DNA of 64,000 bases from Kiritimatiellia bacterium (lineage in GTDB: Bacteria > Verrucomicrobiota > Kiritimatiellia > RFP12 > UBA1067): contig JAZSOG010000025.1 of assembly GCA_045536845.1 (NCBI GenBank), forward strand, positions 159,993-223,992, in the 5' to 3' direction. The notes below the pieces were generated by a model. That model was given only the letters and a program-made list of their open reading frames with translations. It was not told the DNA's origin and searched no databases. A program made the position numbers and the translations under genes. Numbering within the stretch: the stretch's first letter is position 1; every line of letters begins with the position of its first letter. Below are positions 5,066 to 63,351 of this stretch, in pieces.

Positions 5066-6541
5066 ATGAACATGACAAGAAGAACTGCATTGAAGGGGCT
5101 GGCGGTGGCATCGTCGCTGTCGCTCTTTAACATAGGCTGCGCGAATTTCGGCATGAGCCGGGCGCGGCAGATCGCGAAGGGGTCGAAGATTCGCGTTGCG
5201 CTGATCGGGTGCGGGCTCCAGACGGCGAACATGATCGACGGCGTTCTCTGCGAGGACCTTGTCGCGATTGTCGATCCGGACCCGGCGCGGTTGGCGTGGC
5301 TGGACAGGCATGTCGCCGACACGTGCGGCGCGGCGGAAAGGGAGAACTACGCCAAGGCGCGGCGCTTTGCGACTTACCAGGACATGTTCGAAAAGATGGG
5401 CGGCGAGATAGACGCCATCGTCGTTGAGACGCCGAACCACCAGCATGTCCTTCCCGCCGTAATGGCGATGCGGCGCGGAATCCACGTCTATCTCGACAAG
5501 CCGCTTTGCCTCACGGCGGCGGAATGCGATCTCATTCTCGCGGAGGCGCGGAAGAACCCCGGGCTCGTCACGCAGTGCGGAACTTACGGGCACTCCTTCC
5601 CGTCGATGAAATATTGTGTCGACCGCATCGCGGAAGGGGCGCTTGGCGAAGTGCGCGAGGTGTGGGCGTACGACGACCGCTGCAACTCCATATACCAGCG
5701 CCCCGCGGCAGTTCCGCCGCCGAAGGGCATGGACTGGGACCTTTGGTGCGGCGGCTCGCCCGTATGCGACTTCTATCCCGAGAGCCCCGACCAGGATGGA
5801 ATGCATCCGCACGGTTGGCATTCGTGGATCGGCTACGGCAACGGTTCCATCGGCAACCTCGGCATGCACATCATGGATGTCGCGTTCTGGGCTCTCGGGC
5901 TGAAGGATCCTGACACCGTGAAATGCCACGAGGCGAAGTTTGCGCTTGACGGCGCATGGGCCTATCGCGACGCCTTCGAGTTCCACTACCCGACGTCGAA
6001 GTTCGGCTACGATGTCACGATGCACTGGTGGGACGGGCTCAACGACGGCGTTCCGTACGACATGGCGCACGTCAACAAGTACGGCGTTCCCCACAAGCGC
6101 GAATGGCTGAACATACCGCCGAAGGTGCTTGAGGTCGAGAAGGCCAACGGCTTTGAGAACGATCCTTTCTACAAGAACGGAATACTCTTTATCGGCACCA
6201 AGGGCAACCTCTGGTTCACGCACCACGGCGGCTACCGCTTCATGCCGCGCAAGAACGGCTGGTGCATGCCGCGCGTCGACAGACCGGACGACTTCAACTA
6301 CCGCATTGTCACGCCGAAGCACTTCCACGAGTTCTACGAGGCAATTCGCGCGGGAGAGCAGACGATAGACAACTTCGAGTACTCGGTTCCGCTTGCAAAG
6401 ACGGTCTGCCTCGGCAACATCTCCGCGCTTGCGGGGAAGGGAAGCGTCCTCAAGTGGGATGGACATCATGTCACGAACAACAAGGAGGCGGATAGCCATG
6501 TCACCCAGGACTATCGCAACGGGTGGAATCCTTTTGCTTGA
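5066..6541 (+). CDS. Gfo/Idh/MocA-family oxidoreductase with twin-arginine (Tat) signal
   Basis: MTRRTALKGLAVASSL Tat signal; Rossmann IRVALIGCGLQ; ETPNHQH motif; 491 aa. Confidence 0.85.
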   Translation: MNMTRRTALKGLAVASSLSLFNIGCANFGMSRARQIAKGSKIRVALIGCGLQTANMIDGVLCEDLVAIVDPDPARLAWLDRHVADTCGAAERENYAKARRFATYQDMFEKMGGEIDAIVVETPNHQHVLPAVMAMRRGIHVYLDKPLCLTAAECDLILAEARKNPGLVTQCGTYGHSFPSMKYCVDRIAEGALGEVREVWAYDDRCNSIYQRPAAVPPPKGMDWDLWCGGSPVCDFYPESPDQDGMHPHGWHSWIGYGNGSIGNLGMHIMDVAFWALGLKDPDTVKCHEAKFALDGAWAYRDAFEFHYPTSKFGYDVTMHWWDGLNDGVPYDMAHVNKYGVPHKREWLNIPPKVLEVEKANGFENDPFYKNGILFIGTKGNLWFTHHGGYRFMPRKNGWCMPRVDRPDDFNYRIVTPKHFHEFYEAIRAGEQTIDNFEYSVPLAKTVCLGNISALAGKGSVLKWDGHHVTNNKEADSHVTQDYRNGWNPFA

Positions 6542-19740: not shown

Positions 19741-20543
19741 GCTTCTTCGACGGCGTCCACTTGGGGCACCAGTCCATACTGAAGGGCGCCGAGGCGGCGC
19801 TTACTTTCCGCAATCACCCGCTGGCCGTCCTTTCGCCCGACAGGGCGCCGCGGCTTTTGATGGACGCCGAGGAACGCCTTGCCGCGATCCGCTCGTGCGG
19901 CGTGGGCGAAGTCGTTGCGCTCAATTTCACGCCGGAGTTTGCTCGGCTTTCTCCAGAGGAGTTTCTTGCGATGGCGGGGATCACGCGCAAGGTAAAAGTC
20001 AGGTGCGGCGACAACTGGCGCTTCGGGCGCGGCGGAGCTGCCGACGCGACTTGGCTTCGCGCGCACGGGTATTCGGTCGAAGTCATCCCTGCCGTGGAGT
20101 ATCGCGGCGAAGCCGTTTCCTCGACGCGCATCCGCGCCGCGCTCGAGCGTGGCGAGGTCGAGGACGCAGGGGCGATGCTTGGGCGTCCGTTCGAGGTGCG
20201 CGGCGAGGTCTTCGCGGGGAAGGGCGAGGGTTCGCGTCTTGGCTATCCAACGGTGAACTTAAAGCCGAGTTCGCTCAACATTCGGCTCCCGCTCGGCGTC
20301 TATGCGGCCGAGGTGGGCGGAGTGTGCGCAGTTGCAAATTATGGCCTCGCGCCGACGTTCGGCGAGCGTGCGTGGGAAGAGCCGGTCGTGGAGGTTCATT
20401 TTCTGCGGCAGGCGCCTGATGTGCAGGGCGATGGCTTCGCGGAAGTGAAGCTTCTCCGCTTCCTGCGCCCGGAGCGCAGGTTTGATTCTCTCGATGCGCT
20501 TAAATCACAGATCGCGCGCGACTGCGCAGCGGCATTGGCGTGA
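19707..20543 (+). CDS. ribF: bifunctional riboflavin kinase/FMN adenylyltransferase
   Basis: VAVGFFDGVHLGHQSIL FAD-synthetase N-domain, C-terminal riboflavin kinase domain (GYPTVNL). Confidence 0.9.
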   Translation: MRSADFQSVAVGFFDGVHLGHQSILKGAEAALTFRNHPLAVLSPDRAPRLLMDAEERLAAIRSCGVGEVVALNFTPEFARLSPEEFLAMAGITRKVKVRCGDNWRFGRGGAADATWLRAHGYSVEVIPAVEYRGEAVSSTRIRAALERGEVEDAGAMLGRPFEVRGEVFAGKGEGSRLGYPTVNLKPSSLNIRLPLGVYAAEVGGVCAVANYGLAPTFGERAWEEPVVEVHFLRQAPDVQGDGFAEVKLLRFLRPERRFDSLDALKSQIARDCAAALA

Positions 20544-20629
20544 CGCTGCTACGGTGGTTTGCGGCTACATGACCTTAATCGACTCTAGCTGTCTCTTACT
20601 ATATTTCGTCCGCACCGTAATCTCATTTC

Positions 20630-20759
20630 GCTGTGCTTGATTTCAGCGTGGCAGTTTCGCTATAATACCCCCAACGCCGTTGATAATGAGGAATGTGGAA
20701 GAAAACATCGGAATGGGCGACAAAGACAAAAAGAGCAACACCAAAGGGGTGTCTCCCCA
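20630..20759 (+). repeat. island boundary repeat R1 (promoter TTGATT-18-TATAAT + conserved leader + GGGGTGTCTCCCC hairpin)
   Basis: TTGATTTCAGCGTGGCAGTTTCGCTATAATAC...AATGAGGAATGTGGAAGAAAACATCGGAATGG...AAAGGGGTGTCTCCCCA. Confidence 0.7.
20637..20666 (+). promoter_or_regulatory. sigma70-type promoter in repeat R1 (TTGATT-18 nt-TATAAT)
   Basis: -35 TTGATT 20637-20642, -10 TATAAT 20661-20666; identical arrangement in R2 (26189-26218). Confidence 0.55.
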
Positions 20760-21642
20760 GCGGTCCAAAGTCGGTGCGCGGCGCTGGTATGGCGCGGCGC
20801 GAGGGCTGGCAATCATTCTCCCATTCGAATTGGTTTTGCTGCCGTTCATGATCATGGTGTCTGCCTATCTTCCGCTTGCCATCGTGATTGGTGCATCGCT
20901 TGTTGGCTTGGCGGTTCCCGGCCGGCCACATGTTGGAAAGAGCGCGTGGAGGACTGCTCGAGAGTCGATGGTGTGGATTCTTGCCGCGCTTAATATCGTA
21001 GTCGTTGGGGCCTGTTTTTATTTCACTACCGGTTTCTTCGGTATTGCCTTAAACTCGGGTTTCGAGTCGGCTGTCAAGGATGCAGACCGTATAGTTGTGC
21101 GTGACGGCGGCGGAAGATGGAGTTCCAACCCGGAGAAGGATCATGTGCTCTTTGAGATAACGAACAAGGCGGAGATTGCGACATTCAACGAAATGTTCAG
21201 GTTTTGCGAGCGAGAATTGTTGCAATGCAAATGTAGCGGATATCCTGGCATCGACTGGTGGCGCGACGGACAGCGCATCGCGGTGGCGGGGATTCACCAT
21301 CGCCGTAAGCTCCGCGTTACCGGCATAAGCGGAGACTTGTGTTTCACCGGCGAATCAGGGTGCCGTGTCCAGGATTGGCTCGAAACGCATTGCGGGCTTA
21401 CGCAGGGCGACAATTCTCCGCGGTATCGTCGATGCATGATGGCTCGTGCGATAATTGAGAGTGAGGCGCTTGGTCGGGCGAAGACCAACGAAGGCAGGAA
21501 GCCGACGCTTGACGAGATTCGCGATGAGTTCAAGAAGAACGGGAAAGAGTTTCCGAAGTGTCCGGCCGGCGGCGAATATTCGCTTACCTTCGGCGAGGAT
21601 GGAACGCCGATGGTCAAGTGCACGGTTCCTCGCCATGATTGA
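20686..21642 (+). CDS. island membrane protein A (4 TM + Cys-rich soluble C-domain), N-terminal conserved leader MRNVEENIG..KGVSP
   Basis: Preceded by repeat R1 promoter; TM segments LAIILPFELVLLPFMIMVSAYLPLAIVIGASLVGLAV and MVWILAALNIVVVGACFYFTTGFFGIAL; no known domain. Confidence 0.5.
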   Translation: MRNVEENIGMGDKDKKSNTKGVSPQRSKVGARRWYGAARGLAIILPFELVLLPFMIMVSAYLPLAIVIGASLVGLAVPGRPHVGKSAWRTARESMVWILAALNIVVVGACFYFTTGFFGIALNSGFESAVKDADRIVVRDGGGRWSSNPEKDHVLFEITNKAEIATFNEMFRFCERELLQCKCSGYPGIDWWRDGQRIAVAGIHHRRKLRVTGISGDLCFTGESGCRVQDWLETHCGLTQGDNSPRYRRCMMARAIIESEALGRAKTNEGRKPTLDEIRDEFKKNGKEFPKCPAGGEYSLTFGEDGTPMVKCTVPRHD

Positions 21643-21655
21643 CAATCGGATGCGG

Positions 21656-21680
21656 CGCGGCGGATTTGCCGCGCTTTGCG
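21656..21680 (+). terminator. GC hairpin + T-tract (intrinsic terminator-like) after island gene A
   Basis: CGCGGC-GGATTT-GCCGCG CTTTGCG; a related hairpin GCGGC-GCATTTG-GCCGC occurs at 26169-26184 after gene E. Confidence 0.4.
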
Positions 21681-21690
21681 TCATGGGGAT

Positions 21691-21702
21691 TTGTGATATA
21701 AT
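21691..21702 (+). promoter_or_regulatory. island cassette promoter TTTGTGATATAAT (copy 1)
   Basis: GGATTTGTGATATAATACGGTGCATGATGAAACTGCGCG; ~40-nt block repeated at 24893-24935. Confidence 0.5.
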
Positions 21703-21747
21703 ACGGTGCATGATGAAACTGCGCGCGAGCACATGAGGTCTGGTGCT

Positions 21748-22770
21748 ATGAATGATTTGAAAAAGCCTTTGCCGGTCAAGATCGTCGAGACTCTGGGCTG
21801 GATATATGTCATGCTGTCAGTCCTGTTGTTTATACTGGCGATTGTGAATGCGTGTCGAGGTAGCGGCGAGTCGTTGTCCGGCATTCTCTTTGCCGTGCTG
21901 TTTGGACTTTGCCTGCTGTCGCTGCCAGTTGGCATGGTTTTCGCGCTGCGGCTCGGTAGGCGCACGTGGTTCCTTGTGCCGAATACGATTGTCATGAGTC
22001 TTTGTCTGATTGGCGCAATAGAAGCGCTTTGCAGCTCCGCGACGGCATTGCCATTCGTGCTTTTGGCGTTGCTTTTTGGAATCGGGCCGATGGTCCTTCT
22101 CTTTTTGCCGTCGTCAAGTCGGTGGTTCAATGAAATGTCCGGCGATGACTCTCCCAGCCCTTTCGGATGTGCCGGTATAGTTGTAGTAGGAGTGCTCTGG
22201 TTGGCTTTCGTCGGACCGTGTTTGTCCGAGATGTACTTTAGTAAGATAGGGATGCAAAATGCTTTGTCCCACGCGATGGCAGGGCGCGGACGAGCATTGT
22301 GGGGCTGCATTGTTTTCAACCATTCACGCGAATCTGGAAAAGATTGGGTTGACGCCTCTTCTTGCACGAACTCGACGCAGTTTGTCCAGGCGCTGTGGGC
22401 GAAGCTTGGCGAAGACAAAGCCCCATGCCCTTATCCAGACAGTTGGTGCATCGCCGTAAATCCTCCTGACAATGACAAATTCCCTGTAATGGTCACGGCG
22501 AACATCGATCCGCGCGAACTGCTGTGTTCTCAGGACAAGGACCAGCCCTTGAAGCTGACATGTCCGAAGGAGTGGGGCGGCACCTGCTTCAAGTTTTGCG
22601 AGAAGGCGGGTGTGATTGTCTACAAAGGAGGAGCCTCGCAAATTTTTAGAAATAAGTATGTGCGTCCAAGTTTGATATTCAATGACGGCATACCAAAGCC
22701 CGGCCCCGACACCTATTTCCTGACCCCGACCGGCCGCGTGGACATCTGTACCGCGGGTTCAAGAAACTAA
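21748..22770 (+). CDS. island membrane protein B (5 TM + Cys-rich C-domain)
   Basis: Start chosen at MNDLKK after GAGG RBS; five hydrophobic helices; C-terminal domain with 12 Cys; preceded by TTTGTGATATAATACG promoter module. Confidence 0.5.
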   Translation: MNDLKKPLPVKIVETLGWIYVMLSVLLFILAIVNACRGSGESLSGILFAVLFGLCLLSLPVGMVFALRLGRRTWFLVPNTIVMSLCLIGAIEALCSSATALPFVLLALLFGIGPMVLLFLPSSSRWFNEMSGDDSPSPFGCAGIVVVGVLWLAFVGPCLSEMYFSKIGMQNALSHAMAGRGRALWGCIVFNHSRESGKDWVDASSCTNSTQFVQALWAKLGEDKAPCPYPDSWCIAVNPPDNDKFPVMVTANIDPRELLCSQDKDQPLKLTCPKEWGGTCFKFCEKAGVIVYKGGASQIFRNKYVRPSLIFNDGIPKPGPDTYFLTPTGRVDICTAGSRN

Positions 22771-23336
22771 TGAGCGAAGTTCGGGAGAGTCTGCTTTGCA
22801 AAGCGGGCCGGCTGGTCCGTCGTAGGCCAATTTTGTGTGTTGCGTCGACGTTGGTCTTAGCAGTGGTCATTGTGGTCGTGGCTTTTGTAGCTTACGCCGG
22901 CTATTTTGTGTATCGGTTGCATGTTTTGCATGGCCAACGTGTCGAGAAGACATTTGTTGCTTTGGAAGGCTACGGGGGTGCGGATGCCTTTTATGAAAAA
23001 TGCAAGAAGATTGCTTCGCGCTTGCCGTTTGACGAGGGCATGTCATTTACGGGCATGCGATTGCGGCAAGGCGATTCTTCGACAGAAAATGGGAGATCGA
23101 ATGACGTGGGTTGCATATGGCGGGAGCTGTCGGAATTGGATCCTCAGTATGTGGTGAAGGAATCCGGCAGCAAATGTCTTGTGATTCAGGTGTCGGGCGG
23201 GTTCATGCACATGGGGCTTGTTGTCGCGTTAGGCGACGACTATCTCGGCACAGACAAGTTCCCGGCGGTGTGGGATGCGTCTGGCGATTGGAGCTGGAAA
23301 AGACTGGGCAAATATGTGTATTGGTACGAGGAGTGA
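22770..23336 (+). CDS. island membrane-anchored hypothetical protein C
   Basis: N-terminal TM ILCVASTLVLAVVIVVVAFVAYAGYFVY; start overlaps upstream stop (TAATG). Confidence 0.45.
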   Translation: MSEVRESLLCKAGRLVRRRPILCVASTLVLAVVIVVVAFVAYAGYFVYRLHVLHGQRVEKTFVALEGYGGADAFYEKCKKIASRLPFDEGMSFTGMRLRQGDSSTENGRSNDVGCIWRELSELDPQYVVKESGSKCLVIQVSGGFMHMGLVVALGDDYLGTDKFPAVWDASGDWSWKRLGKYVYWYEE

Positions 23337-23362
23337 CTTTCATTATTGACATGAGGCTGGCT

Positions 23363-23400
23363 GGGACATTGGTGGGGACATTGGGACATTGGGGACATTG
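23363..23400 (+). repeat. microsatellite (GGGACATTG[G])x4
   Basis: ctGGGACATTGGtGGGGACATTGGGACATTGGGGACATTGGgg. Confidence 0.8.
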
Positions 23401-23412
23401 GGGAGACACCCC
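23400..23412 (-). repeat. REP-like hairpin GGGGTGTCTCCCC (minus orientation) upstream of transposase
   Basis: Plus strand reads GGGGAGACACCCC; other copies at 20746-20758(+), 24414-24426(+), 24704-24715(+, 12/13), 26290-26302(+). Confidence 0.5.
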
Positions 23413-23792
23413 ATTTTCGTTTCGCTTTTCAGCGCCGATTTTGCCCATTGTCGCCGCTTATCGCAATTTCCCCAGGTTTCCCCCTTGCCTTTTCTCGCCC
23501 ATTATGCGATAATCCTTCCGTTCCTCGGAATTGAACACCGTTGGCGGACGGATACAAGGGGGAACCATGGAGAGTCTGCGGGTTGAAACGCCAGTAGTCC
23601 TTGGTCATCGTGCCGAGGGTGTTGATCGGCGGAACCGCAGACACCGCGTCGCGCGAGGGCTGGCTGGCCCGCAGGCCGCCGGAAGGCGGTGCACAACGCG
23701 CGCGGACTGGCCCGGCATGGCCCATTCCAGATTGCCGAACGCATGGCCGCGTGGCCGTGCGCATTCGGAAACTGCAATCGGAGGGCCACCAA

Positions 23793-24620
23793 ATGGCAAG
23801 AACGGCAAGAGTCAAGAGCGTTGGCGAGGGAACGGCGTACTATCACCTCGTTTCCCGCGCCAGCAACAAACAATTCCTATTTCGGAAATCAGCGGCGAAA
23901 GACCGCCTTGCGGAACTCGCTCGGAAGGCGGCCGAGTTCAGCGGGATCAAGCTTGTCGCATTCGCCGTGATGGACAACCATTACCACATACTCTGCAAGG
24001 TTACGCGCAGCTGCGACCCGGTTCCGCAGGAAGAGGTTGTCCGGCGTGTGGGCATCCTCAAGGGGACAAAGGCTGCTGAGTTTCTTGCGGAGCACTGGAG
24101 GGAGCTTGCGGCTGCGGGTTTTGACGCGACGCTCCAGTCCGAGCTCGGCCGCTACCGCGCACGCATGAACGACATAAGCGAGTTCATGAAGACGATGAAG
24201 GAGCTCTACGCGATATGGTACAACCGCGAGTACGACTACAGCGGCAGCATCTGGAGCGGTGTGTTCAAGTCGACGATGGTCGAGGGAGGCCGATACCTTG
24301 AGTACTGCCGCCGGTACATCATGATGAACCCCGTGCGTGCCGGGATTGTGTCGCAGGTGAAGGACTATCGCTGGGTTTGTGGCGCAGAACCCGAAGAAAC
24401 GGAAGGCTTCGCGGGGTGTCTCCCCGAATGGAGCGTGACGGCGAGGGTGGCGCAGGTCGGGGCGGGGAAGATCTTCGGCAGCGAGGCGTTCGTGCGGAAG
24501 TGGATAGACGGGCTCGGCGACAAGTTCCCCGCGGCGCGGACGGCGGCGCACGCCGTGGGGCGCATCGGCTTTTCGTCGCATGGCTGGCGGCTGGCGAAGA
24601 GGGACGAAAGGGCGGCATAG
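23793..24620 (+). CDS. IS200-like HuH (Y1) transposase / REP-associated tyrosine transposase-like
   Basis: HuH motif MDNHYHILCKV; downstream IWSGVFKSTMVEGGRYLEYCRRYIMMNPVRAGIV typical of PF01797-like transposases; 275 aa. Confidence 0.65.
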   Translation: MARTARVKSVGEGTAYYHLVSRASNKQFLFRKSAAKDRLAELARKAAEFSGIKLVAFAVMDNHYHILCKVTRSCDPVPQEEVVRRVGILKGTKAAEFLAEHWRELAAAGFDATLQSELGRYRARMNDISEFMKTMKELYAIWYNREYDYSGSIWSGVFKSTMVEGGRYLEYCRRYIMMNPVRAGIVSQVKDYRWVCGAEPEETEGFAGCLPEWSVTARVAQVGAGKIFGSEAFVRKWIDGLGDKFPAARTAAHAVGRIGFSSHGWRLAKRDERAA

Positions 24621-24703
24621 GCGGAATGCGGAAGAAATGAGACGATGCGCAGGGGAAAAGTGAGGGAAAGGAGCGGAAAGAGAATGAAAATAGGCGCTGC
24701 CTG

Positions 24704-24715
24704 TGGGGTGTCTCC
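24704..24715 (+). repeat. REP-like hairpin copy (GGGGTGTCTCCC) downstream of transposase, inverted relative to upstream copy
   Basis: Lies 84 nt after transposase stop; forms inverted pair with copy at 23400-23412. Confidence 0.45.
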
Positions 24716-24898
24716 CTTGGGCCACTACACTCGTTGCGCTTCCTTGGCCCGTCGTGGCGGCAAGGCTCGGCGGGCATCGCGAGGCGCGCGCCGGAGTCTA
24801 CTGCTGCGGCAGCAGGTCTGTCTTTAGGATGGCATTGCTACGCTTTAGATCGAACGCCAGCGTGCGCCCCAAGACTTCGCCTATAGCTTCCTTGGAAT

Positions 24899-24910
24899 TT
24901 GTGATATAAT
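24899..24910 (+). promoter_or_regulatory. island cassette promoter TTTGTGATATAAT (copy 2), 7 nt before ATG of gene D
   Basis: GGAATTTGTGATATAATACGACGCATGAGGAAAATGCGCG. Confidence 0.5.
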
Positions 24911-24917
24911 ACGACGC

Positions 24918-25397
24918 ATGAGGAAAATGCGCGAAAGCTTGTGGAATCGGGCTCGTTGCCTTTTGGGCTTGATTGCTGTCTGCGCCATGCCTTTTTTCAT
25001 TGTCGGCCTTCTGTTTGCAGATGAACTGTCGTTTTGGAGAATGGCGTTGGCTTATGCGATAGCGGTATGTTCGCGGCAGGGGTTCAAGTTGGCGTTTAAT
25101 GGACGAAGGAAGGTGTGGCCTATAGTTGCTGCATGTCTGTTGCTGCCCATTGCCATTATCTGTGCGGCATTTGTCGCGTGGCGTCCAGAGCATTGGGCGG
25201 TTTGCGGGTGTGGTCAGCCGTTGGATTACATCGTTCCGGCGCAGTTCTATCCTGGCCCCATTGTCTCGGCGGGAATATTGATTATCGCGTCGCTATGGTG
25301 CGAGCATGACGCGTTTCGCGGGCTTGGTGCAAAGATTCTTTTCTACGCGGCTTGTATGGTGATGGCTTGGTTTGCGTTGAATTTTGCCGAGCAATGA
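24918..25397 (+). CDS. island membrane protein D (4 TM)
   Basis: Leaderless start 7 nt after TTTGTGATATAAT; four hydrophobic helices; no known domain. Confidence 0.45.
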   Translation: MRKMRESLWNRARCLLGLIAVCAMPFFIVGLLFADELSFWRMALAYAIAVCSRQGFKLAFNGRRKVWPIVAACLLLPIAIICAAFVAWRPEHWAVCGCGQPLDYIVPAQFYPGPIVSAGILIIASLWCEHDAFRGLGAKILFYAACMVMAWFALNFAEQ

Positions 25398-25435
25398 AAG
25401 ACACCTTCAGTGACATGCCCAGCGGAACTTAGCAG

Positions 25436-26110
25436 ATGAAAAGAAGAAAGCAGAGATGGTGTTGGCGAATGGACATGGATGTCTTGCGCTGTGTTTTGTT
25501 CTTTTCATTCCTTGTCTTGTTGCTTGCGGCGCTGGGATTGTTGGTAAATGGCATAGTGATTGTGGTGAGGATGTGTCTGCGCGGTTCTGCATTGGGCTTT
25601 GTACTCTTGGCGGCGGTAATCTTGCCCGTCGCTGGTTTTTTCATTGTGCGACGTATTCTGAGAAATCGGGAGCTCAATTCGCTGTTGTCGCGGGGTGTCG
25701 ACTTCGGGTTGAAGGCCGAGTCGCTTCAGATGGTTGACGAGATCATCGAGAAGCACGGGAGGCGCTGTCGCCGGACGGTGGCATTAAAGGCGGAGATCGC
25801 GCCGATGGTTCGATCAATCACCAGTCGCTACAATTCGATTCGCCTCGGGAAGAAGACGGTTTTTAACAGTCATGATCTGCGAACGGGCGTGTCGGGCGGC
25901 TTCAAGGGACGCCCGGCTGACAGTTATTTTGCAATTGCATATGAAGACGAGTCTTGCTATCTTGTCAAATGTTCGCCTTCGGATGAAGCAATATACTACG
26001 ACGAGTACGAATGGATGCGCGAGCCGATTCCATATGCGAGCGACATCCGCCACTATATAGCTTTGCGCTATCAGGAGCTGATGGGGCCTGACACCCGAAA
26101 CCGCGCTTGA
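25436..26110 (+). CDS. island membrane protein E (2 TM + soluble C-domain)
   Basis: TM helices VLFFSFLVLLLAALGLLVNGIVIVV and FVLLAAVILPVAGFFIV; start possibly 25469. Confidence 0.45.
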   Translation: MKRRKQRWCWRMDMDVLRCVLFFSFLVLLLAALGLLVNGIVIVVRMCLRGSALGFVLLAAVILPVAGFFIVRRILRNRELNSLLSRGVDFGLKAESLQMVDEIIEKHGRRCRRTVALKAEIAPMVRSITSRYNSIRLGKKTVFNSHDLRTGVSGGFKGRPADSYFAIAYEDESCYLVKCSPSDEAIYYDEYEWMREPIPYASDIRHYIALRYQELMGPDTRNRA

Positions 26111-26185
26111 TTCCCTTGTGTCGGTTTTGCTGAACCAACTACGTCTTCGGGTGAGAAGCCTAATAGTCGCGGCGCATTTGCCGCG

Positions 26186-26303
26186 CACTTGATTTCAGCG
26201 TAGCAGTTTCGCTATAATACGCGCACCACCTTGAAATGAGGAATGTGAAAGAAAACATCGGAATTGACGATAAAAAGTGCAACGCCAAAGGGGTGTCTCC
26301 CCA
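26186..26303 (+). repeat. island boundary repeat R2 (copy of R1)
   Basis: TTGATTTCAGCGTAGCAGTTTCGCTATAATAC...AATGAGGAATGTGAAAGAAAACATCGGAATTG...AAAGGGGTGTCTCCCCA. Confidence 0.7.
26189..26218 (+). promoter_or_regulatory. sigma70-type promoter in repeat R2
   Basis: TTGATT 26189-26194, TATAAT 26213-26218. Confidence 0.55.
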
Positions 26304-26388
26304 TTTGATCCAAGAGTCCGCGCCAGAGGCGGACGAATATGATGACTGGGACACATGGGATCAGCGCTTCAAGGCTTTGCTGGGCTGA
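26236..26388 (+). CDS. 50-aa ORF carrying the conserved island leader MRNVKENIGIDDKKCNAKGVSP
   Basis: Driven by repeat R2 promoter; first 23 codons ~85% identical at nt level to start of protein A; acidic Trp-rich tail DEYDDWDTWDQRF. Confidence 0.3.
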   Translation: MRNVKENIGIDDKKCNAKGVSPHLIQESAPEADEYDDWDTWDQRFKALLG

Positions 26389-26542
26389 TTTCGCTCGGAA
26401 CAGCCGGGGACACGATAGGCCCGTTTTTCGCCTGTTCGCCGTAGTTTTGGCGAAGGTGGATGTCTTTCGTGTATTTCGTGGTTAATCCTCCGCGGCGCAT
26501 TCCCCCAAAAAATTGTGAAACGCCAAGTCGCATTAGTGTGGA

Positions 26543-26563: not shown

Positions 26564-27937
26564 ATGGGATTCTTCAAGGCATACGACATGCGCGGCACCT
26601 TTGGTGTCGACTTCGACCTCGATACAGTCTACAAGGTGGGGCTTGCCCTGCCGAAAGTAGTCAAGGGAAAACGCTGGCTCGTGGGGCGCGACTGCCGCAC
26701 GACGAGCGACGCAGTTCACGATGCGCTCGTGAAGGGGCTTTCCGAGTCTGGCGCGGGAGTGAGCGACTTGGGGCACTGCACGACGCCGATGGTCTACTAC
26801 TTCACCGCCGCAGACGGCTTCGACGGCAGCGTGATGATCACCGCCTCGCACAATCCGCCGACGGACAACGGCTTAAAAGTTTCAAAGGCGACAGCGCTCC
26901 CCGTCGGCTACGCGAACGGTCTTAACGAAGTTGAGCGACTGGTCGGCGAAATGCAGTCGACGGCCGACGGCCGAAGGCCTTCGGTGAAGGATCTTCCCGA
27001 TGCACTTTCGCGCTACATCGCCTGGCAAAAAGGCCGTGTCAGCACCGCAGCGCTTTCTGGGCTAAAGTTCGCCGTGGACTGCTCGAACGGAATGTCCTCG
27101 CTTTTCGTACGCGAGATGTTCCCGGATGCGGTGCTGCTCAACGACACTCCCGACGGGACCTTCCCCGCCCATTCCCCGAATCCGCTCAAGGCCGAAGCGC
27201 GAGAGCAGATTGCCAAGGTTGTGCGCGAGAAGGGGCTTGACTGCGGCGTCATATTCGACGGCGACGCAGACCGCGCGATGTTCGTCGACGAGCGCGGCGA
27301 ATTCGTCCAGCCTGACTATTTGATTCCAATTGTGGCGAGAGCCACGATGGGAAGTGAAGAGTTAAGAGTTAAGAGTGAAGAGTTGGGGAAGGCCAAGATA
27401 ATTCATGATGTAAGGACATCGCGCGGCGCGATAGAGACGTTGCGCGAGGACGGCTTCGAGCCGGAGATGGTTCCTGTTGGCCATGCCTTTGCAAAGCCGA
27501 TCCTTCGCAAGATTGGCGCTCTTTGCGGCGGTGAGCTTGCGGGGCACTACTACTTTTCGGAGTTCTTCGGGTGTGACTCCGGTCTTCTCGCGGCGACGCG
27601 CATCCTCGGCGAGATCGCGAAGGCGAAGCAAGCGGGAAAGACTTTCTCAGAGATGATGAAGCCGATAGTCTCGCGCTACGCCAACTCGGGCGAAATCAAT
27701 TTCAAAGTTGATGATAAAGAAGCGGCCATCGAGCGCGTTCTCGCTGTCGCGAAGTCGCTTGGCGAAGAAACCGGCCGAAGCGAGATAGACGGCTATCGCC
27801 TTGAATACCGCGACGGCTGGATTTCCGTTCGCAAGTCCAACACCGAGCCGTATCTCCGCCTTCTCGTCGAATGTCGGACAAGGGAAATGCTCGACAATCG
27901 GGTTGGCCGTCTCTCTGACGCAATTGAGGGGAAGTGA
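26564..27937 (+). CDS. phosphomannomutase/phosphoglucomutase family protein
   Basis: Active-site TASHNPPTDNG; 4-domain alpha-D-phosphohexomutase layout; contains heptanucleotide repeat insertion (GSEELRVKSEELGK). Confidence 0.9.
   Translation: MGFFKAYDMRGTFGVDFDLDTVYKVGLALPKVVKGKRWLVGRDCRTTSDAVHDALVKGLSESGAGVSDLGHCTTPMVYYFTAADGFDGSVMITASHNPPTDNGLKVSKATALPVGYANGLNEVERLVGEMQSTADGRRPSVKDLPDALSRYIAWQKGRVSTAALSGLKFAVDCSNGMSSLFVREMFPDAVLLNDTPDGTFPAHSPNPLKAEAREQIAKVVREKGLDCGVIFDGDADRAMFVDERGEFVQPDYLIPIVARATMGSEELRVKSEELGKAKIIHDVRTSRGAIETLREDGFEPEMVPVGHAFAKPILRKIGALCGGELAGHYYFSEFFGCDSGLLAATRILGEIAKAKQAGKTFSEMMKPIVSRYANSGEINFKVDDKEAAIERVLAVAKSLGEETGRSEIDGYRLEYRDGWISVRKSNTEPYLRLLVECRTREMLDNRVGRLSDAIEGK
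27354..27381 (+). repeat. heptanucleotide tandem repeat (T[G/T]AAGAG)x4 inside phosphohexomutase gene
   Basis: TGAAGAGTTAAGAGTTAAGAGTGAAGAG encoding SEELRVKSEEL. Confidence 0.7.
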
Positions 27938-45492: not shown

Positions 45493-45995
45493 ATCCGCAA
45501 GGCGGTGGCGCGTCCGCGGAGGGGAGAGTTTCGGCTTAAGGTGGGAAATCGCCGCACCGCCCGATGGCTCGCGGGGCTCGCGTTTTGTAGCGAGCCAAGC
45601 CGAGCGAAGCGAGTGCCGAGCCGTGCCTCGGCGTCTATCACTGGTTGCGTGCGCAAGTCACTCTTACGCCTGCGACCTTCCGCCTGCCTCACCCGCGACC
45701 ATCGGCTCGGCTTGGCGATAGCCTTGTGGCAGAAAAACACATGCCGCCGAAACACCCCCTCCGCTCCCGCGCAATTTGCCGGGCCGAAAGGCTGAGGAGC
45801 GTCGAACCGATGGTCTAAGCGTAGCGCAGGCCTCGCTATCGGGCGGCGCGACGATAGCCATAAAACACACTGTGCTGTCAACGAGAACAAGGTGGCGAAA
45901 TTGGGTTGTCAGAAAAGGTGGGTGGGTGTTCCTAACTGGGTATAAGCGCAAGAATGGGCTTGCGCACAATAGAAAGGCGCATCGAAAATAGCGCT

Positions 45996-62364: not shown

Positions 62365-63351
62365 ATGAAGAAACTACTGATGGTGGTCACGATGGCGATG
62401 GCGTCTGTGCTGTTCGCTCAAGACAAGACGATGTCGTCAGCTGACGCTCGTGGCAAGATCGGCGACATAATCTCGGATCCTGCGTCCATGACTTCAGTGA
62501 TGAAGCAGCTGGCCGCGGCCGACCAGGCGTCGTTCCTCGCCGATGTCAACGCGGCGATCTCGAAGATGCCCGGCTCCCCCGAGGAGAAGACCTCGAAGTT
62601 TGTTGCCGTGAACTCTGCGGCCCTCAAGGGCGCCCAGAAGGGCAACCTCACCACGCTCGTCGCCGAGGTGTTCGCCACGGTTCCTCCGGAGTCGCTCACT
62701 GCCATCAACGAGCAGTTCGCGGCCGGCATGTTCAACCGTGCGGCTGATCCCTCCAAGACCTACACCGACGAGGAGTACAAGAAGACGTCGCTCGCGCTGC
62801 TCGACAAGGTCCAGGAGCGCAACGCGACCGCCGACAACGCTGGCGTGCGCAACACGTTCGCGATCCTGATGCTCCTCCGCGCGTCCAACGGCAGCCCCGC
62901 CGATCTCCGCGACACGCTCGTCAACGACCTCAAGAACGAGGAGACGAGGAACCTTGCGCAGAACGAGTGGATCTCCCCCGCACTCGGCCAGGGTCAGGAG
63001 AAGACCTATGATCCGATGCTCGGCGCCGCCGATGCCGGCAACCAGCCCAATCTCAACATGGTTCTCGTGGTTCCGCTCAAGTCCGCCGGCGACGCGCTTG
63101 CCGCAGACCTCGCGAGCGAGTGCAGCCTTTCGGACACCTCCTCTTCGATCACTGCTCTCATCGCCCCTGTGTTCGGTGACCAGAACACCCTGGACCTCGC
63201 CGACGGCGTCGATCCCCTGGCGAGCGGCGGTCTTTCGAGGATTCCCCGTACGATGGATCCCAGCGCCAAGTACAATCCCGCCAACAAGCGCGGCTCGACC
63301 ATCGTCGAGACGCCCTATGAGCCGGGTCCGTATGATGGCCAGGACTACTAA
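62365..63351 (+). CDS. secreted hypothetical protein
   Basis: Signal peptide MKKLLMVVTMAMASVLFA; no recognisable domain; Ala/Asp-rich. Confidence 0.45.
   Translation: MKKLLMVVTMAMASVLFAQDKTMSSADARGKIGDIISDPASMTSVMKQLAAADQASFLADVNAAISKMPGSPEEKTSKFVAVNSAALKGAQKGNLTTLVAEVFATVPPESLTAINEQFAAGMFNRAADPSKTYTDEEYKKTSLALLDKVQERNATADNAGVRNTFAILMLLRASNGSPADLRDTLVNDLKNEETRNLAQNEWISPALGQGQEKTYDPMLGAADAGNQPNLNMVLVVPLKSAGDALAADLASECSLSDTSSSITALIAPVFGDQNTLDLADGVDPLASGGLSRIPRTMDPSAKYNPANKRGSTIVETPYEPGPYDGQDY

Follow-up and report, generated by a model that had tools for sequence, protein, structure and literature searches.

What connects a gene for a HuH-type tyrosine enzyme to a short hairpin that recurs on both sides of it and within it? 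The question is raised by a 64,000-nt stretch of a rumen Kiritimatiellae genome (hereafter, the window), in which a gene for a 275-aa protein at 23793-24620 (plus strand) lies among copies of a self-complementary 13-mer. A reading made from the bare letters (the original prediction) had described an IS200/Y1-type enzyme of the REP-associated tyrosine transposase (RAYT) kind, where REP stands for repetitive extragenic palindrome, and had proposed that the hairpin is the target of the enzyme and may have seeded the repeats of the surrounding island. To answer it, motif counts in the window were compared with those in shuffled sequences (n=100), and the locus was compared with loci fetched from related genomes and metagenome contigs, which are referred to below by L-numbers (L001 etc.). 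We consider it likely that the locus is a unit of the REPtron/TIRtron type: a class-2 Y1 HuH gene, inverted cognate hairpins on its two sides and a third copy inside the gene.

The 13-mer GGGGTGTCTCCCC occurs without mismatch at 20746-20758, 24413-24425 and 26290-26302 on the plus strand and at 23400-23412 on the minus strand, and a copy with a single mismatch, GGGGTGTCTCCCT, is present at 24705-24717 (plus strand). Five matches at up to one mismatch compare with 0.05 expected, and none of the 100 shuffles gave five; a tolerance of two mismatches added just one more match, which is the chance level. All five copies are confined to a lower-GC segment of 5.6 kb (20.7-26.3 kb). Folding of the exact copies as single-stranded DNA gave -5.0 to -6.3 kcal/mol (z -2.3 to -3.2). 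The left, upstream hairpin (23400-23412, minus strand; the plus strand reads GGGGAGACACCCC; fold -5.0 kcal/mol, z -3.2) fits the consensus GGGGWSAS, lies 393 nt 5' of the ATG and forms the left limit of the conserved unit; homologous loci have it at the same position and in the same orientation. The in-gene hairpin (24413-24425, plus strand) covers codons 207-211, which read A-G-C-L-P, between the catalytic and the C-terminal domains. The right, downstream hairpin (24705-24717, plus strand) follows the stop codon by 85 nt and is degenerate in this strain: the mutation weakens its stem, and it folds no better than shuffled sequence (z 0.14). At the same position, the 88-90% identical homologues L096, L097 and L158 have exact GGGGTGTCTCCCC. 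The inverted core present at both ends of the unit amounts to 12-13 nt, GGGAGACACCCC. The inverted flanks of the original prediction were thus recovered, here and in about 75 homologous loci. Its downstream copy, placed at 24704-24715, is present at slightly shifted coordinates and is neither exact nor stably folded, and its in-gene copy starts one nucleotide earlier than the 24414 it gave.

Pfam Y1_Tnp (PF01797) matches the protein at 54 bits (cut-off 23), in two stretches divided by an insertion, which confirms the Y1 HuH assignment made originally. The HuH motif NHYHIL occupies residues 62-67, and the block YIMMNPVRAGIV residues 175-186. N62-H63-x-H65 and Y175-x3-N179-P180 are kept by all 36 aligned homologues, the Tyr motif reading YIMMNP. 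The AlphaFold2 model has a pLDDT of 79, with residues 203-214 below 50 (linker). Foldseek returned structure 4ER8 as the best match (E 7e-6), followed by IS608 and ISDra2 TnpA, and the first 30 matches were all RAYT, IS608, ISDra2 or IS200 TnpA; profile-sequence matches to the 4ER8, IS608 and ISDra2 proteins were weak. Compared with those enzymes of ~150 aa, the protein has an additional helical insertion of ~55 aa between the HuH and Tyr motifs and a further C-terminal domain of ~65 aa that has no Pfam match. The latter (24385-24575, residues 197-260) bears a weak HEAT-like resemblance (alphaRep/PBS-lyase-type, E 0.001).

An identical protein is encoded on 14 rumen or gut metagenome contigs, and the nearest named homologue comes from a Kiritimatiellae metagenome-assembled genome (MAG). 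At least five related genomes (93-97% identity) have the gene at this position, and more distant lineages have it in other contexts. The 64-kb window holds one copy; a weak tblastn match at 63071-63241 was rejected as a second transposase, being located inside a 340-aa secreted protein.

Mapping of every GGGG-N5-CCCC in the fetched loci that encode homologues (47-94% identity) revealed the same three-site architecture in about 75 of them: an upstream hairpin on the minus strand, 170-440 nt before the ATG; a hairpin on the plus strand within the open reading frame (ORF), at codon 205-207; and a downstream hairpin on the plus strand, 40-160 nt away. The stem is constant across loci and the loop is lineage-specific, the architecture persisting at a protein divergence above 50%. 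The clade of at least 65% identity has the loop TGTCT, with TGCCA in some of its in-gene copies; a clade of ~50-55% identity has TCTGT, CCTGT or ACTGT. Loops agree within a locus: ACTGT is found both in the gene and downstream in L113, L128 and L147, and CCTGT at all sites of L116 and L117. The upstream arm reads GGGGAGAC here and GGGGACAG in the second clade, and both fit GGGGWSAS. The architecture is held in unrelated contexts, such as between a GDSL lipase and a dehydrogenase gene (L088) or after a folC-like gene (L089). Inverted hairpin doublets adjoin the gene in L088, L141, L142 and L151, and L114 and L118 have an extra sense hairpin ~40 nt before the ATG, beside the ribosome-binding site. 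Taken together, the three-site architecture and the within-locus agreement of loops are the signature of a cognate enzyme/repeat pair.

The in-gene hairpin, present in nearly all homologues, is under constraint at the level of DNA. Residues between the invariant G208 and P211 vary among homologues (CL, FN, FD, CH, SD), and GGG and CCC are invariant; codons of the in-gene hairpin were identical in 38 of 40 comparisons, versus 53-64% for conserved degenerate residues elsewhere. Few solo copies of the hairpins of other clades were found in the short metagenome contigs. A hairpin with another loop, GGGGACAGACCCC, is intact in L093 (~5129-5141), downstream of a gene for ~150 aa; the same site is degenerate or truncated in the window (~26399-26410, GGGGACAC) and in L079. 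Two hairpin types may coexist within one genome.

Upstream of the gene lies a sigma-70-like promoter at 23485-23513 (plus strand; TTGCCT, 17 nt, TG-GATAAT), which was located by a promoter scan and is conserved upstream of the leader in homologues. It is followed by a structured 5' leader of ~270 nt at 23520-23792 (plus strand), delineated by RNAalifold, covariation and nhmmer. RNAalifold predicted 54 pairs from 19 diverse loci; 96.5% of the leader cells were paired, compared with 42-47% when partners were slid, and compensatory changes supported 22 pairs versus 7-16 in the slid controls, with none of 500 shuffles matching the observed values. The 5' end of the leader (23522-23527) is predicted to pair with the Shine-Dalgarno sequence GGAGGG (23780-23785). 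All 52 nhmmer matches of the leader profile lie directly upstream of homologues of this transposase gene; the leader is conserved in both hairpin clades and absent from some lineages. Neither the leader nor the solo module described below matched any Rfam family at gathering thresholds, and the only sub-threshold match was to a eukaryotic snoRNA model (E 0.085). The leader probably holds expression of the enzyme low by occluding the ribosome-binding site.

The two remaining hairpins (20746 and 26290) each terminate a direct repeat of ~120 nt (20636-20759 and 26188-26303, 85-90% identical), in keeping with the original statement that they fall in the boundary repeats of the island. We scanned one genome per species with the 17-mer AAWGGGGTGTCTCCCCA, which contains the motif. 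Of the 77 loci obtained, ~38 came from about eleven rumen or goat-gut Kiritimatiellae/'Lentisphaerae' MAGs, and the others were singletons from unrelated taxa. Four MAGs had 7-9 matches each, on separate contigs, at ~6e-4 expected per genome (uniform composition); the motif is thus found outside this locus in related genomes, as the original prediction required. The Kiritimatiellae loci share a conserved 150-175 nt module with the hairpin at its 3' end; the module consists of a 5' end ATTTCGTCCGC (in alternative forms), a promoter TTGATT-18-TATAAT, a leader, the hairpin and ATTTGATC; similarity ends abruptly after ATTTGATC. Module promoters are the best promoter matches of the region in the promoter scan, and the leader, purine-rich and ~75 nt long, holds a small ORF (MRKVKENIEMGDKKSNAKGVSPHLI...).

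The nhmmer profile of the module, which we designate type A, finds two full copies in the window. Copy 1 (20603-20758, plus strand) starts with ATTTCGTCCGC, has its promoter at 20637-20666, a purine-rich leader with the small ORF and the hairpin, and continues in frame into a 320-aa membrane ORF (20680-21642). Copy 2 (26168-26310, plus strand) starts with a terminator-like stem-loop (26168-26185), followed by the promoter (26189-26218), the leader, the hairpin (26290-26302) and ATTTGATC. The profile also aligns the 45 nt before the left hairpin of the transposase unit with the 3' part of the module (E 3e-6). About 10 of 42 unique module copies run in frame into long ORFs with hydrophobic N-termini; other copies stop after 18-60 codons, with the start of the next gene nearby. 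A long co-directional ORF follows the module in 82% of cases versus 79% at random positions, the DNA being GC-rich, and codon-position entropy of the small ORF has a weak third-position excess. The dispersed copies of this lineage are single hairpins that end modules, not the inverted pairs resembling bacterial interspersed mosaic elements that the original prediction had suggested looking for.

Comparison of strains revealed that deletions, tandem duplications and breakpoints cluster within ~10 nt of hairpins. Strain-to-strain homology with the window starts at 23391, 9 nt from the left hairpin. Relative to L019, L055, L029 and L079, where a full gene of ~150 aa is kept, the window has lost ~420 nt, beginning 6-8 nt after 26302; the product of this deletion is a 50-aa fusion ORF (26236-26388, plus strand) that joins the small ORF of the module to the last ~25 codons of that gene. 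Relative to L070, L035 has a 28-nt deletion that starts 4 nt after the hairpin, following CCCCATTT. The hairpin unit is duplicated in L055, three in-gene copies are present in L103, and arrays of 2-4 hairpins lie beside the gene in L130, L138 and L144; L048 retains only a 3' gene fragment, with the break ~10 nt 5' of the in-gene hairpin. What comes after the orthologous ribF-adjacent module differs: there is one sequence in the window, another in L030 and L052, and a third in L079. Tandem units of 8-9 nt abut the left hairpin at 23360-23399 (no strand assigned; GGGACATT, minus strand CAATGTCCC), and the count of the unit beside the hairpin (CCCAATGT..., 8-11 nt) varies by strain: L002 has one unit, L019 and L079 have two, and L055 and the window have three to four. 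The spacer between fusA and a DUF177-like gene (45513-45994) is wholly different from that of the 93%-identical L035 (350-2131), and since the whole spacer differs, insertion boundaries are not definable there. The L035 spacer contains a module and a truncated lipoprotein gene, and the spacer in the window its own long inverted repeat.

Could the hairpin be mainly regulatory, an RNA stem-loop or a double-stranded DNA operator, with the HuH protein a domesticated binder of a secreted/membrane regulon and of its own mRNA, and the rearrangements secondary? We regard this as unlikely, although of the alternatives it fares best. In solo modules the hairpin always lies ~75 nt past a strong promoter, in the direction of transcription and inside a small ORF; the transposase transcript has sense hairpins in the ORF and in the 3' untranslated region, in some lineages also ~40 nt before the ATG (L114, L118); and the gene has an elaborate structured leader. 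The upstream copy, however, is antisense and outside the transposase transcript, and the invariant HuH and Tyr residues argue for kept nuclease/ligase chemistry. Breakpoints, deletions and duplications concentrated at hairpins and inverted flanks of the arrangement known from REPtrons and TIRtrons also speak against this reading.

Which known system does the preferred REPtron/TIRtron-type unit resemble? RAYT-like genes flanked by terminal inverted repeats (TIRs) that share GGGGWSAS have been described as TIRtrons and their products as TIRYTs; certain of the TIRs belong to families of moderate abundance (Di Nocera et al. 2013, PMC3733652). Most TIRYTs fall in subclass 2.1, which corresponds to Bertels group 1 (Quentin et al. 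2018, PMC6006769), and 16-mers flanking group 1 RAYT genes have ~12 occurrences per replicon (Bertels et al., PMC5581495). Our locus is like a TIRtron in having a RAYT-like Y1 gene between inverted repeats that share GGGGWSAS (here GGGGAGAC and GGGGACAG), in the partial self-complementarity of these repeats, some of them in dispersed families, in its apparently low gene copy number (one in the 64 kb), and in its combination of an NH[YF]H HuH motif with a YxxxNP Tyr motif, the latter being the class-2 (RAYT-type) TnpA-Y1 signature (PMC6006769). It differs in having the third, in-gene copy, the ~270-nt structured leader, solo copies that end promoter-leader modules, and a host in the phylum Kiritimatiellota. 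Unlike in subclass 2.1, no C-terminal helix-turn-helix (DnaA_C-like) was detected: Bac_DnaA_C, HTH_23 and HTH_28 gave no Pfam match at E<=1. The NHYH motif is shared with subclasses 2.1 and 2.3, in which no REP-like structures were found (PMC6006769), and the ~55-aa helical insertion, of the beta3:alphaC type between the HuH and Tyr motifs, with subclass 2.3.

With REPtrons (E. coli YafM, 4ER8; Pseudomonas REPINs) the locus shares its best structural match, a gene between inverted cognate palindromes, a repeat sequence that co-varies with the enzyme lineage and genome-dispersed copies. Here, however, the GC stem is only 4 bp long, the GT[AG]G foot is missing, there are about ten copies per genome versus hundreds, these are, in this lineage, singlets versus inverted doublets, and the protein scores under the NCBIfam RAYT cut-off. 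In-frame REPs have been found inside tnpA-REP genes of subclass 2.4 (PMC6006769). As in our gene, such a cognate palindrome lies in the transposase ORF with the frame intact, in a peripheral or flexible region; the subclass 2.4 insertions are variable and lie between the HuH and Tyr motifs, whereas throughout our family one fixed site, located behind the Tyr motif, carries the palindrome and changes in concert with the flanking copies. We conclude that this is a RAYT/TIRYT-type system that belongs to the described GGGGWSAS TIR class and not to a new REP family; the distinct REP family of the original prediction gives way to this assignment, given that its arm GGGGAGAC fits the TIRYT/TIRtron consensus and that its copy number is low.

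IS200/IS605 TnpA proteins (IS608, ISDra2) share with our protein the HuH/Y1 fold; they recognize small subterminal hairpins and cleave single-stranded DNA a few nt from the hairpin, and a comparable recognition and cleavage would be expected here. It is nevertheless very unlikely that the unit 23391-24717 is an autonomous IS200/IS605-type insertion sequence that transposes whole. The differing contexts (a phosphomannomutase [PMM] gene here, GDSL lipase/dehydrogenase in L088, folC-like in L089) and the many homologues on contigs of 1-2 kb, which would follow if assemblies broke at repeats, would suit such an element. Against it, NCBIfam NF033573 (IS200) gives 25.2 bits, under its cut-off of 55, and the protein, about twice as long, has YxxxNP and not YxxxQ (PMC6006769). 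The end hairpins lie on opposite strands, unlike those of IS608, which are on the same strand, and tnpB is missing. Far from being multi-copy, the unit occurs once in the 64 kb and at the same place in at least five genomes of 93-97% identity.

The least probable alternative treats the type A copies as conserved 5' ends of paralogous genes, each a promoter with N-terminal codons (...KGVSPQ/H...); ordinary duplication or gene conversion would have spread them, and shared ancestry alone would explain why the 13-mer is also found at the transposase flanks. Four of five window copies do read G-V-S-P in frame after a Lys-rich start, ~10 of the 42 enter long ORFs whose N-termini are hydrophobic, one indel has a length divisible by three and third codon positions are slightly more variable (0.41 versus 0.28-0.32 bits), but post-hairpin sequences are mutually unrelated, with similarity stopping sharply at ATTTGATC, most copies hit stops after 18-60 codons, tandem copies and 5'/3' fragments occur (L049, L044, L062, L054), substitutions between copies are mostly non-synonymous, and the same 13-mer and loop flank the transposase gene in lineages of 65-94% identity. 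The modules are also reminiscent of reused, putatively mobile promoters, near-identical promoter segments that precede unrelated genes, both in a single genome and across related ones (Nijveen, Matus-Garcia, van Passel 2012, PMC3575422). Unlike these, the segment here has defined ends, is linked to the cognate hairpin of a HuH enzyme, and includes a start codon and a leader ORF.

Several observations weigh against the REPtron/TIRtron-type unit. The protein reaches 56.7 bits with the RAYT equivalog of NCBIfam (NF047646, REP_Tyr_transpos), under the cut-off of 80; the RAYT label of the original prediction therefore holds as regards the nearest solved structure, 4ER8, and fails at the equivalog threshold. 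The 5' flanks of the hairpin copies are AAA, AAT, TGT and CGC and lack the GT[AG]G foot that canonical REPs have. The remaining 58 kb of the window has zero copies of GGGGTGTCTCCCC, and the hairpins form a low-copy family, about ten per genome, which are not classical REPs; the copy count of the gene, in turn, is that of the window, not of whole genomes. Similarity between the left and right ends outside the core is marginal (score 38 versus a shuffled maximum of 34), and since the right-end copy is mutated in this strain, the local unit may be decaying. Solo modules have one hairpin only, and a two-ended excision mechanism is not evident from them. BLAST of the module flanks against all fetched loci returned no clean filled/empty site pairs, only hairpin-adjacent deletions or replacements, so that mobility is something we infer; hairpins can drive replication slippage and deletion without any enzyme.

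If the REPtron/TIRtron-type unit is nevertheless the right description, the covariation of hairpin and enzyme and the hairpin-adjacent breakpoints suggest, as first proposed, that the hairpin is the target of the enzyme and may have seeded the repeats of the island. By analogy with E. coli TnpA-REP and with IS608 and ISDra2 TnpA, it would bind the hairpin extruded in single-stranded DNA, nick a few nt 3' of the stem, around ATTT/GATC, and be able to rejoin ends. Such nicking and rejoining would spread and reshuffle hairpin-ended segments, and the interval between ribF and the PMM gene would become a rearrangement hot spot.

That interval is a variable, lower-GC segment between ribF, which ends at 20543, and the PMM gene at 26564-27937. 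Its five other ORFs (20680-23336 and 24918-26110; 320, 354, 188, 159 and 224 aa) have no Pfam match, and several have hydrophobic N-termini. The idea that the island is a prophage or integrative element was rejected, since it lacks any integrase or phage gene and Pfam matches none of the five ORFs. In L001, L002 and L004-L007 a second PMM gene, 86% identical to that at 26564-27937, immediately precedes the left hairpin, which puts the transposase unit of those strains between two PMM paralogues; in place of the second PMM gene, the window and L008 have the 188-aa ORF (22770-23336).

Other repeats were noted along the way. A 53-nt direct repeat (21678-21730 and 24886-24938, 81% identical) holds TTTGTGATATAATAC and the sites at which the 354-aa and 159-aa ORFs begin; this second reused promoter/5' end directly follows the hairpin module in L033 and L034. 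The palindrome GCGGC-NNATYT-GCCGC gave 16 strand-hits at ~12 sites of the window (10091, 10612, 11914, 21657, 26169, 45464 and others) versus 0.2 expected. Several sites are intergenic and some are followed by T-runs (11914; 45464, after fusA), which makes it look like a shared family of terminator-type stem-loops; one forms the 5' edge of a module at 26168. A GC-rich repeat of ~400-500 nt with a long internal palindrome is present in L035 (404-935 and 1680-2054), L020, L026, L033, L037, L040, L049, L070, L073, L084 and L085, often directly upstream of the promoter-hairpin module; in L035 its inverted copies flank a module and a lipoprotein gene. It was not found in the 64-kb window.

What would a REPtron/TIRtron-type unit mean for its hosts? 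The dispersed copies are ends of modules that read into the neighbouring gene, so hairpin-adjacent events would change the targets of promoters, and the genes read into often encode a signal peptide or a membrane segment. A more speculative proposal, to which we give only little credence, is that the HuH enzyme and its hairpin make up a promoter-delivery or cassette-exchange system. Modules, each bringing its own strong promoter along with a leader and a start codon, would then be cut and rejoined a few nt past the hairpin, so that a different secreted or membrane-protein gene would come to be expressed or joined to the leader. If this were true, gut Kiritimatiellae would possess a route to surface variation driven by a HuH enzyme on single-stranded DNA, with the enzyme throttled by a dedicated leader RNA.

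For the enzyme family, the implications are more immediate. TIRYT and subclass 2.1-2.3 RAYT-like enzymes are widespread, yet they have been reported without recognisable cognate hairpins (PMC6006769). The family described here is a compact, sequence-defined enzyme/hairpin pair: its fixed stem, 5-nt loop that covaries with the enzyme and three conserved sites make the rules of recognition and cleavage directly testable. With it comes a structured leader RNA, unannotated and confined to these genes, and it ties a RAYT-like enzyme to promoter-leader modules that can be reused and to the rearrangement, between strains of an uncultured rumen lineage, of genes for secreted proteins.

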